Shown: in pieces, positions 60,882-62,360 of the stretch
Layout of the letters: each line of letters opens with the position of its first letter
Numbering within the stretch: the first letter of the stretch is position 1
The notes under the pieces: model-generated
Seen by the model: the letters and a program-made list of their open reading frames with translations, nothing else
What the model was told of the DNA's origin: nothing
The model's database searches: none
Position numbers and translations under genes: made by a program
Source of the DNA: a phage
DNA: 64,000 nucleotides
Sequence record: OZ346182.1
Direction: 5' to 3' (one strand)

Positions 60882-60958
60882 GCACCTATAGCCCAACTGG
60901 TAGAGGCAGCAGACTTAGAATCTGCTCAGTGTGAGTTCGAATCTCTCTAGGTGTACCA
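60882..60958 (+). tRNA. tRNA with Leu-type anticodon UAG but short variable arm
   Basis: Stem GCAGA/TCTGC, loop CTTAGAA; discriminator A; 77 nt. Confidence 0.5.
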
Positions 60959-60965
60959 AATTAAT

Positions 60966-61041
60966 GCAGGTGTAGCAAAATGGTTATGCGGCTGACCCTT
61001 AATCAGTAAGACGATGGGTTCAATTCCCTCCACCTGTACCA
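60966..61041 (+). tRNA. tRNA-Lys (anticodon CUU)
   Basis: Paralogous in body to the UUU tRNA; loop CCCTTAA. Confidence 0.6.
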
Positions 61042-61047
61042 AACAAT

Positions 61048-61123
61048 GGGGTCATAGTTTATATGGTTAAAATTCGAGTTTTGCAAACTTGGGAACTGAG
61101 TTCAATTCTCAGTGACTCCACCA
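61048..61123 (+). tRNA. tRNA-Ala (anticodon UGC)
   Basis: Loop TTTGCAA; acceptor has G3-U70 wobble pair characteristic of tRNA-Ala. Confidence 0.75.
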
Positions 61124-61129
61124 ATTAGT

Positions 61130-61204
61130 GCATCCATAGTTTAAACGGGAAAATTACAGTCTTCCAAACTGAGGTTGAGGGTTCGATTCCCTCTGGATGC
61201 TCCA
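61130..61204 (+). tRNA. tRNA-Gly (anticodon UCC)
   Basis: Loop CTTCCAA; T-arm GAGGG-TTCGATT-CCCTC. Confidence 0.7.
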
Positions 61205-61211
61205 AATTAAT

Positions 61212-61287
61212 GCTCCTATCGTATAATTGGTTATTACGGTTGCCTTGTAAGCAACTTATCAGGGTTCGAGTCCTTGTGGGAGCACCA
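61212..61287 (+). tRNA. tRNA-Thr (anticodon UGU)
   Basis: Stem GTTGC/GCAAC, loop CTTGTAA. Confidence 0.7.
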
Positions 61288-61289
61288 AT

Positions 61290-61370
61290 TCAGAGGTCAA
61301 GTGAAAGACCGCTTTGAGTCAACTGAAGACCGTAACAAATTCCACGAAGTTGAGTTAGCGGCACAACTTC
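61290..61370 (+). ncRNA. hairpin-forming element between tRNAs (CAGAGGTC ... GACCTCT ends)
   Basis: Terminal 8 bp inverted repeat and internal GAAGTTG...CAACTTC repeat. Confidence 0.35.
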
Positions 61371-61383
61371 AGACCTCTTTCAT

Positions 61384-61458
61384 ACTCGCTTAGTTTATAT
61401 GGTAAAACATCACCCTTACAAGATGAAGAAAAAGGTTCAAGTCCTTTAGTGAGTACCA
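61384..61458 (+). tRNA. tRNA-Val (anticodon UAC), tentative
   Basis: Loop CTTACAA; T-arm AAAGG-TTCAAGT-CCTTT. Confidence 0.55.
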
Positions 61459-61459
61459 T

Positions 61460-61537
61460 GTTCCAGTATCCCAATTGGCAGAGGATGCAAGCTCAAACCT
61501 TGTATTAGTGACGGTTCGAATCCGTCTTGGAACACCA
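61460..61537 (+). tRNA. tRNA with Leu-type anticodon CAA but short variable arm
   Basis: Stem GCAAG/CTTGT, loop CTCAAAC; discriminator A. Confidence 0.5.
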
Positions 61538-61542
61538 ATTTT

Positions 61543-61618
61543 GCAGGATTAGTTCAAATGGATAGAGCAACAGTCTACGAAGCTGCTAATAGGGGTTCGA
61601 ATCCCTTATCCTGCGCCA
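61543..61618 (+). tRNA. tRNA-Arg (anticodon ACG)
   Basis: Loop CTACGAA; D-stem GTTC/GAGC. Confidence 0.65.
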
Positions 61619-61637
61619 ATTTAAAGAGGCTATTTAG

Positions 61638-62195
61638 ATGAGATATTTGAAGTATGCTTCATGGATTTTCTTAGCTTTGTTAGAGCCATTTGCAGCAATC
61701 TTAGCAGTTATCTTAGCACCTTTTGTAGTTCCATTCTACAGTGAGAAGAAAGGGCACTTACCTTTCGGGTTCAGATGGATGGAGACATATGACAACCCAA
61801 TTGATGGTGATGAAGGTCACGTTAAAAGATGGGCTAATATTAGATGGATTGGTAAACTAGGTGTCTACATGCAAAGAGTCGGATGGCTCTGGAGAAACAA
61901 AGCTTATAACTTCTCTTACCATGTATTAGGAAGAGATGTAAGAGATGTTACTAAGTGGAAAGGTAATATCAACGTAAGTTCTGACCCCGAAGATAATCAG
62001 ACAGGTTATCTCCTAATGTGGAACAGTAATGCTTGGGGATTATTCGCTTTTATCCCATCAATTAAAATCTTTGGTAAACAATTTTACTGGAGAATTTATA
62101 TTGGATGGAAACTAAAAAGTGTTGTCCCAGAAGAAAGAGCATTCTCAAGGGAAAGAGTTATGTTGGCATTCTTTATTCATCCACTGAGAAAGTAA
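61638..62195 (+). CDS. hypothetical membrane protein encoded inside the tRNA array
   Basis: 185 aa; N-terminal TM segment WIFLALLEPFAAILAVILAPFVVPF; Trp-rich. Confidence 0.45.
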   Translation: MRYLKYASWIFLALLEPFAAILAVILAPFVVPFYSEKKGHLPFGFRWMETYDNPIDGDEGHVKRWANIRWIGKLGVYMQRVGWLWRNKAYNFSYHVLGRDVRDVTKWKGNINVSSDPEDNQTGYLLMWNSNAWGLFAFIPSIKIFGKQFYWRIYIGWKLKSVVPEERAFSRERVMLAFFIHPLRK

Positions 62196-62203
62196 AGATT
62201 TAA

Positions 62204-62279
62204 AGGGGATTAGTTTACAAGGTTAAAACCTCGGTCTTTGAAATCGAAGAAGTTGGTTCAATTCCAACATCCCCCGCCA
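62204..62279 (+). tRNA. tRNA-Gln (anticodon UUG)
   Basis: Loop CTTTGAA; D-stem GTTT/AAAC. Confidence 0.6.
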
Positions 62280-62281
62280 AT

Positions 62282-62360
62282 GCTCCATTACTCCAATTGG
62301 CAGAGAGGCCAGACTTAAAATCTGTGTTATGTATCGGTTCGAATCCGATATGGAGTACCA
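62282..62360 (+). tRNA. tRNA with Leu-type anticodon UAA but short variable arm
   Basis: Loop CTTAAAA; T-arm ATCGG-TTCGAAT-CCGAT; discriminator A. Confidence 0.5.

Follow-up and report, generated by a model that had tools for sequence, protein, structure and literature searches.

Leucine tRNAs without a long variable arm (type I tRNALeu) are already known from animal mitochondria and from Streptomyces coelicolor. To our knowledge, bacterial type I tRNALeu has been studied biochemically by Fan et al. 2019 only. In that work, the type I tRNALeu(CAA) of S. coelicolor was leucylated by its own LeuRS, its deletion from the genome was not achievable, the length of its variable loop was found to matter, and bacterial tRNAs of this type were called rare (PMC6614811). 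A transcript of the same tRNA was not leucylated by 1 nM E. coli LeuRS (EcLeuRS), an enzyme described there as charging type II tRNALeu only (Fan et al. 2019, PMC6614811). According to the review of Giege & Eriani 2023 (PMC9976931), which lists the E. coli leucine identity set, a long arm is carried by tRNALeu everywhere save in animal mitochondria; neither this arm nor the anticodon is needed for leucine identity, E. coli tRNALeu variants without both staying active, and arm size is the major identity element for serine. Deletion of the arm in Aquifex leads to a lower affinity (PMC2377443).

Our literature search yielded no paper that describes phage tRNALeu with short arms as a subject of its own. 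The nearest one remarks in passing that a mycobacterial tRNA cluster, acquired horizontally, includes a tRNALeu(TAG) whose variable loop is short (PMC6582537). 'Derived' short-arm Leu/Ser/Tyr tRNAs are mentioned without detail in two tRNA-evolution papers, and short-arm tRNALeu are not treated in a review on non-canonical tRNAs (PMC7609411).

Results

The window, that is the whole stretch of 64 kb that was analysed, is that of a Felixounavirus (Felix O1-like coliphage). A sequence-only reading had assigned by eye the leucine anticodons UAG, CAA and UAA to three tRNA genes of 77-79 nt with A73 and variable regions of 5-7 nt. ARAGORN called the same anticodons at the same coordinates, namely tRNA-Leu(tag) at 60882-60958 (77 nt), tRNA-Leu(caa) at 61460-61537 (78 nt) and tRNA-Leu(taa) at 62282-62360 (79 nt), all on the + strand, and returned no differing anticodon loop or identity for any of them; these lengths include the encoded CCA. 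Sizes, variable regions and A73 were likewise confirmed by ARAGORN, Rfam and direct reading. The Rfam model RF00005 recognized Leu(UAG), Leu(CAA) and Leu(UAA) with 57.3, 44.0 and 47.5 bits, respectively, for a gathering score of 29 (E-values from 1e-10 to 4e-7), and its alignment of Leu(UAG) displayed a 7-nt anticodon loop, CUUAGAA, together with a short variable region. The comparison with related phages gave the same picture, GenBank Felixounavirus records labelling these genes tRNA-Leu; those of Leu(UAG) are identical or near-identical, and Leu(CAA) and Leu(UAA) are annotated as tRNA-Leu in phage heid.

In the ARAGORN bracket structures, the three tRNAs have an acceptor stem of 7 bp, a D stem of 3 bp, a D loop of 11 nt, a variable region of 4-7 nt, a discriminator A and an encoded CCA. 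By direct reading, the variable regions are UCAGU (5 nt), AUUAGU (6 nt, or 5 if U26-A44 is paired) and GUUAUGU (7 nt) for Leu(UAG), Leu(CAA) and Leu(UAA), respectively, none of which attains the more than 10 nt with a stem-loop that define a class II arm. The acceptor stems are GCACCUA/UAGGUGU in Leu(UAG), GUUCCAG/UUGGAAC in Leu(CAA) and GCUCCAU/AUGGAGU in Leu(UAA), the first and the last with G1.U72, and each is followed by U8 A9. The D stems are GCC/GGC, UCC/GGA and CUC/GAG in the same order, closing the loop CAACUGGUAGA in Leu(UAG) and CAAUUGGCAGA in the two others. The anticodon loops of Leu(CAA) and Leu(UAA) are CUCAAAC and CUUAAAA, that of Leu(UAG) carries A37, and the T stems are GUGAG/CUCUC, GACGG/CCGUC and AUCGG/CCGAU. 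Two stem defects were noticed, U50.U64 in the T stem of Leu(UAG) and C27.U43 in the anticodon stem of Leu(UAA). Thermodynamic folding alone gave Z-scores of -0.16, -1.78 and -1.59 and a minimum free energy fold for Leu(UAA) that is not a cloverleaf; such folding is uninformative for low-GC unmodified tRNAs, and we therefore gave weight to the covariance model, to ARAGORN and to the covariation of the family instead.

The three genes belong to a cluster of 25 ARAGORN tRNAs (58632..63556), all on the + strand and with an encoded CCA wherever the sequence was read, which is interrupted by two ORFs of unknown function, DUF7338 (61638-62195) and DUF7217 (about 62584-63381). Long arms are retained by the Ser and Tyr tRNAs of this same cluster, that is the class II tRNA-Ser at 60536-60625 (90 nt) and 63383-63475 (93 nt) and the class II tRNA-Tyr at 59129-59216 (88 nt), all called by ARAGORN on the + strand. 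No other tRNA among those whose ARAGORN structures were read has both a D stem of 3 bp and a D loop of 11 nt. A phage LeuRS or tRNA enzyme was sought beside the genes; the neighbouring ORFs encode DUF7338, DUF7217 and DUF2828/DUF7788 proteins, with no indication of a synthetase. A permissive Rfam search for other structured RNAs nearby gave just weak tmRNA, tRNA-Sec and plastid matches, which are regarded as by-catch of tRNA-like sequence.

Leu codons represent 7.9% of the window codons. Their distribution in the window ORFs differs from that of E. coli K-12 (49-kb sample), with shares of 24.2% vs 11.0% for UUA, 14.7% vs 10.5% for UUG, 12.2% vs 2.4% for CUA and 15.5% vs 50.2% for CUG.

Direct reading located U8, A14, A15, G18G19, A20a, U48 and A73 in all three Leu tRNAs. 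G18G19 and A20a sit in the 11-nt D loop on its 3-bp stem, and the loop consensus CAAYUGGYAGA has the layout of the E. coli RAAUYGGUAGA. With the common T loop UUCGAAU (U54, U55, C56, A58) and U48 as the last variable nucleotide, each tRNA possesses the tertiary set U8:A14, A15:U48, G18:U55, G19:C56 and U54:A58. The identity set for a bacterial LeuRS is thus complete in all three, the arm alone being missing. The alanine element G3:U70 is not present (pairs 3-70 are A-U, U-A and U-A), and a serine-like identity is lacking too, with a short arm and A73 instead of G73.

To situate these tRNAs, the 77-nt Leu(UAG) was used as a query and gave 242 phage records at a coverage of at least 80%, those listed being mostly annotated tRNA-Leu; near-full-length matches include phages of Mycobacterium, Streptomyces, Pseudomonas and Enterococcus. 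Most of the 2.2-kb region is carried by 215 records, and Leu(UAG) is 95-100% identical in 85. The three genes are kept across Felixounavirus, Mooglevirus-like and Suspvirus-like phages of Escherichia, Salmonella, Shigella and Citrobacter, and short Leu tRNAs also occur in the unrelated enterobacterial phages Cronobacter CR3, Klebsiella KaOmega and Enterobacter F5M1E.

The pattern CCAAYTGGYAGAG-N27-32-GTTCGAATC, searched in IMG/VR, matched at least 120 contigs. Among the matches listed, 119 of the 126 viral tRNAs carrying it bear Leu anticodons, and all six Leu types are represented. At positions left free by the pattern, the 173 unique members have U8 (100%), U48 (99%) and A73 (99%), with A15:U48 in 171 of them. 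Every stem pair is canonical in 88-100% of these members with 2-6 pair types, except that the sole invariant one, 53-61, is fixed by the search pattern itself, and positions 13-22 never form a canonical pair. The unpaired C13.A22 is a trait of the type I tRNALeu lineage, which all three window tRNAs share together with its Leu anticodon, 3-bp D stem, CAAYUGGYAGA, variable loop of 4-7 nt ending in U48, and A73. A variable region of 5 nt is the family norm (146/185), from which Leu(CAA) and Leu(UAA) depart with 6 and 7 nt. In over half of the CUN-reading members, A37 replaces G37.

A viral sample drawn with a Leu-independent pattern was used as a control. Among the matches listed, from which the frequencies are rough, 23 of 60 Leu tRNAs are short, with A73 in 23/23, and long arms are present in 61/61 Ser and 18/18 Tyr tRNAs. 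The loss of the arm is specific to Leu and spares Ser and Tyr, as known synthetase requirements would predict.

Single chromosomal genes of the same architecture were found by a bacterial genome scan in Mycobacterium, Nocardia, Pseudonocardia, Amycolatopsis and others, which agrees with the type I tRNALeu(CAA) characterised in S. coelicolor. Among the bacterial matches listed, 79 of 119 have Leu anticodons, and most of the others are ordinary tRNATrp, whose D stem has 4 bp. In E. coli K-12, leuW, leuZ, leuX, leuV and leuU are 85-87 nt long with variable arms of 13-15 nt, and a blastn search for type I Leu genes in E. coli chromosomes and prophages had no match in 5,426 genomes. That bacterial tRNA-Leu is normally long, the starting premise of the sequence-only reading, holds for E. 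coli but fails as a universal rule, type I being encoded on the chromosomes of many Actinomycetota and often in phages.

Outside the variable region and the anticodon, the three tRNAs are 64-70% identical among themselves, 38-62% identical to E. coli tRNALeu and 71-83% identical to the best type I tRNALeu elsewhere, a comparison of best-of-5 with best-of-173 that favours the larger set. A recent origin by arm deletion from the host genes is rejected on these values, because the identity to type I tRNALeu elsewhere exceeds that to E. coli tRNALeu.

Discussion

These data, read from sequence and from family comparison, make it likely that the three genes of this Felix O1-like phage encode functional compact (type I/class I) tRNAs for leucine, serving UUA, UUG and CUA codons. 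They would be transcribed along with the + strand cluster and matured by host enzymes, and could fold into the L shape through the hinge of bacterial tRNALeu, that is the U8:A14 pair, the A15:U48 Levitt pair, G18:U55, G19:C56 and U54:A58, and a D loop of 11 nt that contains A20a and is closed by a D stem of 3 bp. Charging would then be performed by the E. coli or Salmonella LeuRS. The UAA and CAA anticodons are predicted to decode UUA/UUG, and UAG to decode CUA/CUG and possibly also CUU; of these Leu codons, UUA, UUG and CUA are more frequent in the AT-rich phage than in its host. The arm would be dispensable for Leu alone, which would explain the long arms retained by Ser and Tyr tRNAs in these clusters. 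As to their origin, the genes probably derive from an old type I tRNALeu lineage, circulating widely among phages and chromosomal in many Actinomycetota.

An unlikely alternative is that these tRNAs function poorly or not at all in enterobacteria, being horizontally inherited from phages that infect other hosts, barely charged by E. coli LeuRS, and either relics or host-restricted. The failure of EcLeuRS to charge the type I tRNALeu(CAA) of Streptomyces and the description of this enzyme as type II-only would agree with this proposal, but the Streptomyces identity rules differ, A73 being unused and EcLeuRS charging even the Streptomyces type II tRNALeu at only 50% (PMC6614811). The stem mismatches, the atypical variable regions of 6-7 nt, the lack of such a gene in the 5,426 E. 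coli genomes and the position of the nearest relatives outside enterobacterial systems point in the same direction; they are opposed by the retention of the three genes across Felixounavirus, Mooglevirus-like and Suspvirus-like phages with Leu(UAG) nearly invariant in 85 records, by the short Leu tRNAs of CR3, KaOmega and F5M1E, by the encoded CCA and the intact identity positions, and by the activity of armless E. coli tRNALeu variants (PMC9976931).

Slightly less probable still is an extra selective role, in which not simple economy but escape from a host nuclease, toxin, turnover or regulation sensing the class II shape or the anticodon loop would be the reason for the armless form. The proposal draws on the proportion of short forms, about a third of viral Leu tRNAs among the matches listed of the control sample, on hosts such as E. 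coli that are without them, on the A37 of over half of the CUN-reading members, and on anticodon loops unlike those of the host, as CUUAGAA in the phage Leu(UAG) vs UUUAGGU in leuW, three loop differences being present in the Sf14 homologue (Ross & Doore 2025, PMC12482277). Against it, this analysis identified neither an anticodon nuclease specific to Leu nor a defence that recognises the arm, and the same type is a housekeeping gene on actinobacterial chromosomes. In the same host, the Leu tRNA of T5 is of class II, and so is that of T4. Escape from a host anticodon nuclease was excluded for the Sf14 tRNAs by the study cited above (PMC12482277).

Finally, a recoding in which the tRNAs read Leu codons while another amino acid is charged, the class I body being the substrate of a different synthetase, is very improbable: the class I size favours it on the surface only and, as LeuRS, SerRS and AlaRS ignore the anticodon, a swap of body could in principle change identity (PMC9976931), but the tRNAs have neither G3:U70 nor the G73 and long arm required for serine, by established identity rules the other E. 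coli synthetases require anticodon bases not found in these tRNAs (PMC9976931), the full LeuRS set is present in all three, in the 173 unique sequences this one body is combined with each of the six Leu anticodons and A73 reaches 99%, the S. coelicolor member was leucylated experimentally (PMC6614811), a reassignment of most Leu codons would be drastic given their 7.9% share, and the phage proteins obtained with the standard code match ordinary protein family profiles. Of the two possibilities left side by side by the sequence-only reading, compact Leu isoacceptors or tRNAs charged differently, the first is thus favoured by the identity set and by a family in which 119 of 126 matches listed are Leu, and the second is disfavoured by the missing alanine and serine elements.

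As such, these genes are unremarkable, hundreds of Felixounavirus records listing them as tRNA-Leu. The compact type, often met in phages and Actinobacteria, is not new but under-appreciated. Its significance lies in its frequency in phages of very different hosts and its maintenance in coliphages whose host has none. A wider and rather doubtful proposal is that type I tRNALeu is a major phage-propagated lineage and not a Streptomyces or mitochondrial oddity, working with a host LeuRS accustomed to type II, and that the armless form is perhaps positively selected. In enterobacterial, Pseudomonas and Enterococcus phages, the host LeuRS is not normally known to meet any tRNALeu other than type II. 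Selection may act through escape from host tRNA-directed defences or, because many CUN readers have A37, from m1G37 dependence. If true, this would contradict both the published view of E. coli LeuRS as type II-only (PMC6614811) and the statement that the arm is lacking solely in animal mitochondria (PMC9976931). Such genes provide a simple case for asking how much of a tRNA a bacterial LeuRS needs, offer naturally compact Leu tRNA scaffolds and call for caution in isotype or pseudogene calls based on tRNA length.

Among known systems, the class II tRNALeu of E. coli, encoded by leuW, leuZ, leuX, leuQPV and leuU, have in common with the phage tRNAs the anticodons UAG, UAA and CAA, A73, U8:A14, A15:U48, G18G19, A20a, the 3-bp D stem and the 11-nt D loop, and the G1.U72 of Leu(UAG) and Leu(UAA) is also that of leuZ and leuU. 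They differ by R13 vs C13, by G9 vs A9, by G37 in the CUN reader and by a variable stem-loop of 13-15 nt without counterpart in the phage Leu tRNAs. The tRNALeu(UAG) of T5, like the genes of the window, is a phage-encoded Leu isoacceptor in a coliphage tRNA cluster but is 85 nt long with a long arm. The T4 tRNALeu, encoded in the tRNA cluster of another E. coli phage, is class II as well. Human mt-tRNALeu(UUR) and the other animal mitochondrial tRNALeu are also without the long arm and have their identity on A73 and A14 (PMC9976931); they are floppy and served by their own mitochondrial LeuRS, whereas the phage tRNAs keep canonical D/T-loop interactions. The minimal E. coli tRNALeu of Larkin et al. 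2002, engineered without variable and anticodon arms, are, as summarised by the review, armless bodies that EcLeuRS charges if A73 and the D/T tertiary contacts are intact (PMC9976931); those constructs are artificial, whereas the phage Leu tRNAs are natural. The S. coelicolor type I tRNALeu(CAA) resembles the phage tRNAs by its U8:A14 and its variable loop of roughly 5 nt, vs 6-7 nt in two of the three, and it works beside type II tRNALeu in one cytoplasm; the phage host is without type I tRNALeu, and its LeuRS is reported not to charge that of Streptomyces. The actinobacterial genes resemble the phage ones by the 3-bp D stem, CAAYUGGYAGA, an NCAGU variable loop, U48 and A73, and the GUGAG strand in the T stem of the phage Leu(UAG) recurs in the tRNALeu(CAA) of Mycobacterium. 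The genes of the window differ from them in being phage-borne, AT-richer and present with three anticodons at once.

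Three short leucine tRNA genes in the tRNA cluster

ARAGORN places 25 tRNA genes at 58632-63556 of the window, all of them on the + strand. Among them are three tRNA-Leu genes: Leu(UAG) at 60882-60958 (77 nt), Leu(CAA) at 61460-61537 (78 nt) and Leu(UAA) at 62282-62360 (79 nt), scoring 57.3, 44.0 and 47.5 bits respectively with the Rfam tRNA model (RF00005, threshold 29 bits). The coordinates and the anticodons assigned by eye in the sequence-only reading match these automated calls exactly. In the ARAGORN structures, all three have a 7-bp acceptor stem, a 3-bp D stem, an 11-nt D loop, a variable region of 4-7 nt, a discriminator A and an encoded CCA. 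In the Rfam alignment of Leu(UAG), the variable region is short and the 7-nt loop, CUUAGAA, is normal. The variable regions read by hand are UCAGU for Leu(UAG), AUUAGU for Leu(CAA) and GUUAUGU for Leu(UAA), and the class I size of 77-79 nt remarked on earlier is fully confirmed. Long arms are retained in the Ser (90 and 93 nt) and Tyr (88 nt) tRNAs of the same cluster (ARAGORN), and the five E. coli K-12 tRNALeu species compared measure 85-87 nt with arms of 13-15 nt.

The region shows 98.8% identity to Escherichia phage vB_EcoM_LMP34 and 99.9% to phage heid; 315 phage records match, mostly Felixounavirus and relatives with Escherichia, Salmonella, Shigella and Citrobacter hosts. Since all three genes are annotated as tRNA-Leu in the GenBank record of phage heid, and likewise in many other listed records, the genes and their isotype are already in the databases, where their class I size passes without comment.

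Other features of the neighbourhood were observed. Directly upstream of the cluster, a 471-aa ORF (57051-58466, +) matches PHROG 850 "RNA-binding protein" and Pfam DUF2828 and DUF7788, and carries the annotation "vWFA protein" in phage heid. The tRNA-Met(cat) called by ARAGORN at 58884-58960 is absent from both Rfam lists, tRNA-Tyr (59129-59216) has only a sub-threshold tRNA-Sec match there (29.6 bits), and the tRNA-Ser at 60536 scores just 31.1 bits. Between tRNA-Ile and tRNA-Ser, a 570-nt stretch with no ORF of at least 50 aa on the + strand holds a tRNA-like element (60215-60296, +; RF00005, 31.7 bits) without an ARAGORN call. Its acceptor stem is 7 bp long (CGGGGCG/CGCCUCG), its T arm is normal (loop UUCGAGU), and it has a discriminator A and an encoded CCA but no D arm. 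It also contains a hairpin with the loop CUUCUAA, in which the anticodon would read UCU, and an extra region of 20 nt. Just upstream, 60024-60213 matches the tmRNA model weakly (15.8 bits); in phage heid the interval between tRNA-Ile and tRNA-Ser carries an HNH endonuclease gene. The mechanical ORF 62584-63381 (+), with a GTG start at 62584, overlaps tRNA-Phe (62555-62630); since the alignments to the DUF7217 and PHROG 2114 profiles do not begin until residue 28-29, its true start probably lies downstream of tRNA-Phe.

Leucine identity and charging

The three tRNAs share U8, A14 and an A15 that pairs with U48, the final nucleotide of the variable region. Their D loop CAAYUGGYAGA provides G18G19 followed by Y20 and A20a, their T loop UUCGAAU supplies U54, U55, C56 and A58, and all carry the A73 seen in the sequence-only reading. 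This is exactly the E. coli leucine identity set of A73, A15-U48, G18G19, A20a, G18:U55, G19-C56 and U54:A58 (PMC9976931), to which A14 has been added (Fan et al. 2019, PMC6614811). The D-arm layout is also that of E. coli tRNALeu (D loop RAAUYGGUAGA on a 3-bp stem), and the 3-bp stem and 11-nt loop occur together in no other tRNA with a printed ARAGORN structure.

It could be argued that such short tRNAs are non-functional in enterobacteria. The sole bacterial type I tRNALeu characterised so far, S. coelicolor tRNALeu(CAA), is charged by its own LeuRS and by human mitochondrial LeuRS but not by 1 nM E. coli LeuRS (EcLeuRS), which is described as charging type II only (Fan et al. 2019, PMC6614811). 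Its variable-loop nucleotide number (5) matters (PMC6614811), whereas two of the window tRNAs have 6 and 7. However, the Streptomyces LeuRS/tRNALeu system is atypical, because A73 is no identity element there, unlike in the E. coli set, and because its type II tRNALeu is charged by EcLeuRS at half rate (PMC6614811). Moreover, three short Leu genes are retained in enterobacterial phages and short Leu tRNAs occur independently in Vequintavirinae, and we regard non-function as unlikely. The earlier suggestion of charging with another amino acid is not supported, since among the determinants of other anticodon-independent synthetases sought, G3:U70, G73 and a long arm are all absent, which removes its basis.

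The companion suggestion, that these genes encode compact Leu isoacceptors, is in our view quite likely to be right, judging from the full leucine identity set and from membership of the type I family described below.

A type I family in phages and bacteria

At least 80% of the 77-nt Leu(UAG) is covered in 242 phage records (distant blastn), the listed ones mostly annotated as tRNA-Leu. By host genus they comprise Mycobacterium (76), Streptomyces (46), Escherichia (41), Salmonella (27), Pseudomonas (13), Shigella (12), Enterococcus (11) and Gordonia (7), with further matches among Cronobacter, Klebsiella, Enterobacter and Erwinia phages and one crAss-like phage. ARAGORN, run on four of the matched phages, called short Leu tRNAs in each: CAA and UAG in Cronobacter phage CR3, two UAG in Streptomyces phage Warpy, CAG, GAG and CAA in Mycobacterium phage Latch, and one UAG beside one long Leu(UAA) in Enterococcus phage 113. 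In the latter (L009, 2825-3648), the 86-nt long-arm tRNALeu(UAA) adjoins the 75-nt short tRNALeu(UAG), and a phage-encoded tmRNA (tag AKNEELLAVA) follows the pair.

The pattern CCAAYTGGYAGAG-N27-32-GTTCGAATC, which couples a Leu-type D arm to a T loop at class I distance, matched at least 120 IMG/VR contigs. Among the matches listed, 119 of 126 pattern-bearing tRNAs had a Leu anticodon (UAG 40, CAA 31, UAA 30, GAG 10, CAG 7, AAG 1). The same pattern, scanned against bacterial contigs (one genome per species), listed at least 79 Leu tRNAs and at least 37 ordinary tRNATrp, the 37 being by-catch with a 4-bp D stem and G73. For most of the listed bacterial Leu matches, no second tRNA lies within 8 kb; these genes are found on large chromosomal Actinomycetota contigs (many Mycobacterium species, Nocardia, Pseudonocardia, Amycolatopsis, Glycomyces, Bifidobacteriaceae, Acidimicrobiia). 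A minority belong to tRNA arrays in which 9-34 genes are packed into 8 kb (contigs L134, L138, L153, L176, L178, L222 and others; Asanoa, Polyangiaceae, Acidobacteriota, Rhodocyclaceae, Haliangiales) that look horizontally acquired or phage-derived. No short tRNALeu match was found among 5,426 complete E. coli genomes.

A set of 173 unique Leu tRNAs sharing the 74-nt core was drawn up from three sources: viral contigs, genomes and cultured phages. Conservation at positions outside the search pattern reaches 100% for U8, 99% for U48 and 99% for A73. In the acceptor, D, anticodon and T stems, every pair is 88-100% canonical and occurs as 2-6 pair types, except that pair 53-61 is invariant because the pattern fixes it; this covariation amounts to abundant compensatory change. 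Positions 13 and 22 form a canonical pair in none of the 173 (C.A in 167), and 26 and 44 are mostly unpaired. Leaving out variable region and anticodon, the window Leu tRNAs are 64-70% identical among themselves, 71-83% to their best type I counterpart elsewhere and 38-62% to E. coli tRNALeu, a comparison of the best of 173 with the best of 5 and hence tilted toward the larger set. These values indicate membership of the type I lineage and rule out recent deletion derivatives of host tRNALeu genes.

To reduce ascertainment bias, a control pattern that cannot match tRNALeu (GTTCGAATCC-N10-GCCA, with G73 and encoded CCA) was used to collect 118 new viral loci. Among those listed, a core of class I size is found in 23 of the 60 Leu tRNAs, which come from 13 of the 29 loci with Leu genes, and all 23 have A73; as the loci are the first 120 scan rows rather than a random draw, the share of about a third is approximate. 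None of the 61 Ser tRNAs is shorter than 83 nt, and none of the 18 Tyr tRNAs is shorter than 79 nt. Bacterial TyrRS binds the long arm of its tRNA, and arm loss specific to Leu fits synthetase requirements, bacterial LeuRS having no need of the arm. In some short Leu tRNAs of the IMG/VR control loci (L264, L267, L270, L314), the D loop is nearer the long-arm type (R13, e.g. GAACAGGUAUA, or ACAAAUUGGCAAAG) and the variable loop reads, for instance, GUUUU, which suggests more than one loss of the arm.

Codon demand and proposed function

Leucine codon shares of the 63 long window ORFs (window G+C, 38.8%) were compared with a 49-kb E. coli K-12 sample: UUA 24.2% against 11.0%, UUG 14.7% against 10.5%, CUU 27.2% against 12.6%, CUC 6.3% against 13.3%, CUA 12.2% against 2.4% and CUG 15.5% against 50.2%. 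The UAA, CAA and UAG anticodons thus serve codons over-used by the phage. The three tRNAs would be co-transcribed with the rest of the cluster, matured by host enzymes, leucylated by the host LeuRS, with A73 and the D/T hinge as recognition features, and would then decode UUR and CUN codons. A consensus promoter scan for the cluster gave nothing better than shuffled sequence. For the related Shigella phage Sf14, a computational study concluded that its tRNAs mainly support late-gene translation, possibly once the host genome and its tRNA genes are degraded, and ruled out escape from host anticodon nucleases; the variable arm goes unmentioned (PMC12482277).

The CUN reader tRNALeu(UAG) (60882-60958) has A37 (CUUAGAA), where host leuW has G37 (UUUAGGU), the m1G37 site; of the type I Leu tRNAs that carry NAG anticodons, 32 of 57 viral members and 16 of 27 genomic ones have A37. 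In tRNALeu(CAA) (61460-61537; loop CUCAAAC, host leuX UUCAAAA), C38 replaces A38 of A36A37A38, a TrmL determinant, for which prior i6A37 is required (PMC9976931).

Comparison with known systems

The scale on which short tRNALeu occur appears under-described: a single passing published remark was found, on a short-loop tRNALeu of a mycobacterial tRNA cluster (PMC6582537). The window genes are ordinary and already annotated, yet they raise the testable question of what LeuRS requires and point to a broader, poorly documented pattern. The same architecture is seen in S. coelicolor type I tRNALeu(CAA) and in its homologues from actinobacteria, and engineered armless tRNALeu constructs are also among the closest known entities. 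Animal mitochondrial tRNALeu is likewise armless, but structurally degenerate and served by its own LeuRS. The tRNALeu(UAG) of T5 is class II (85 nt), whereas that of the window is short, and E. coli class II tRNALeu shares the identity set but also has the arm.
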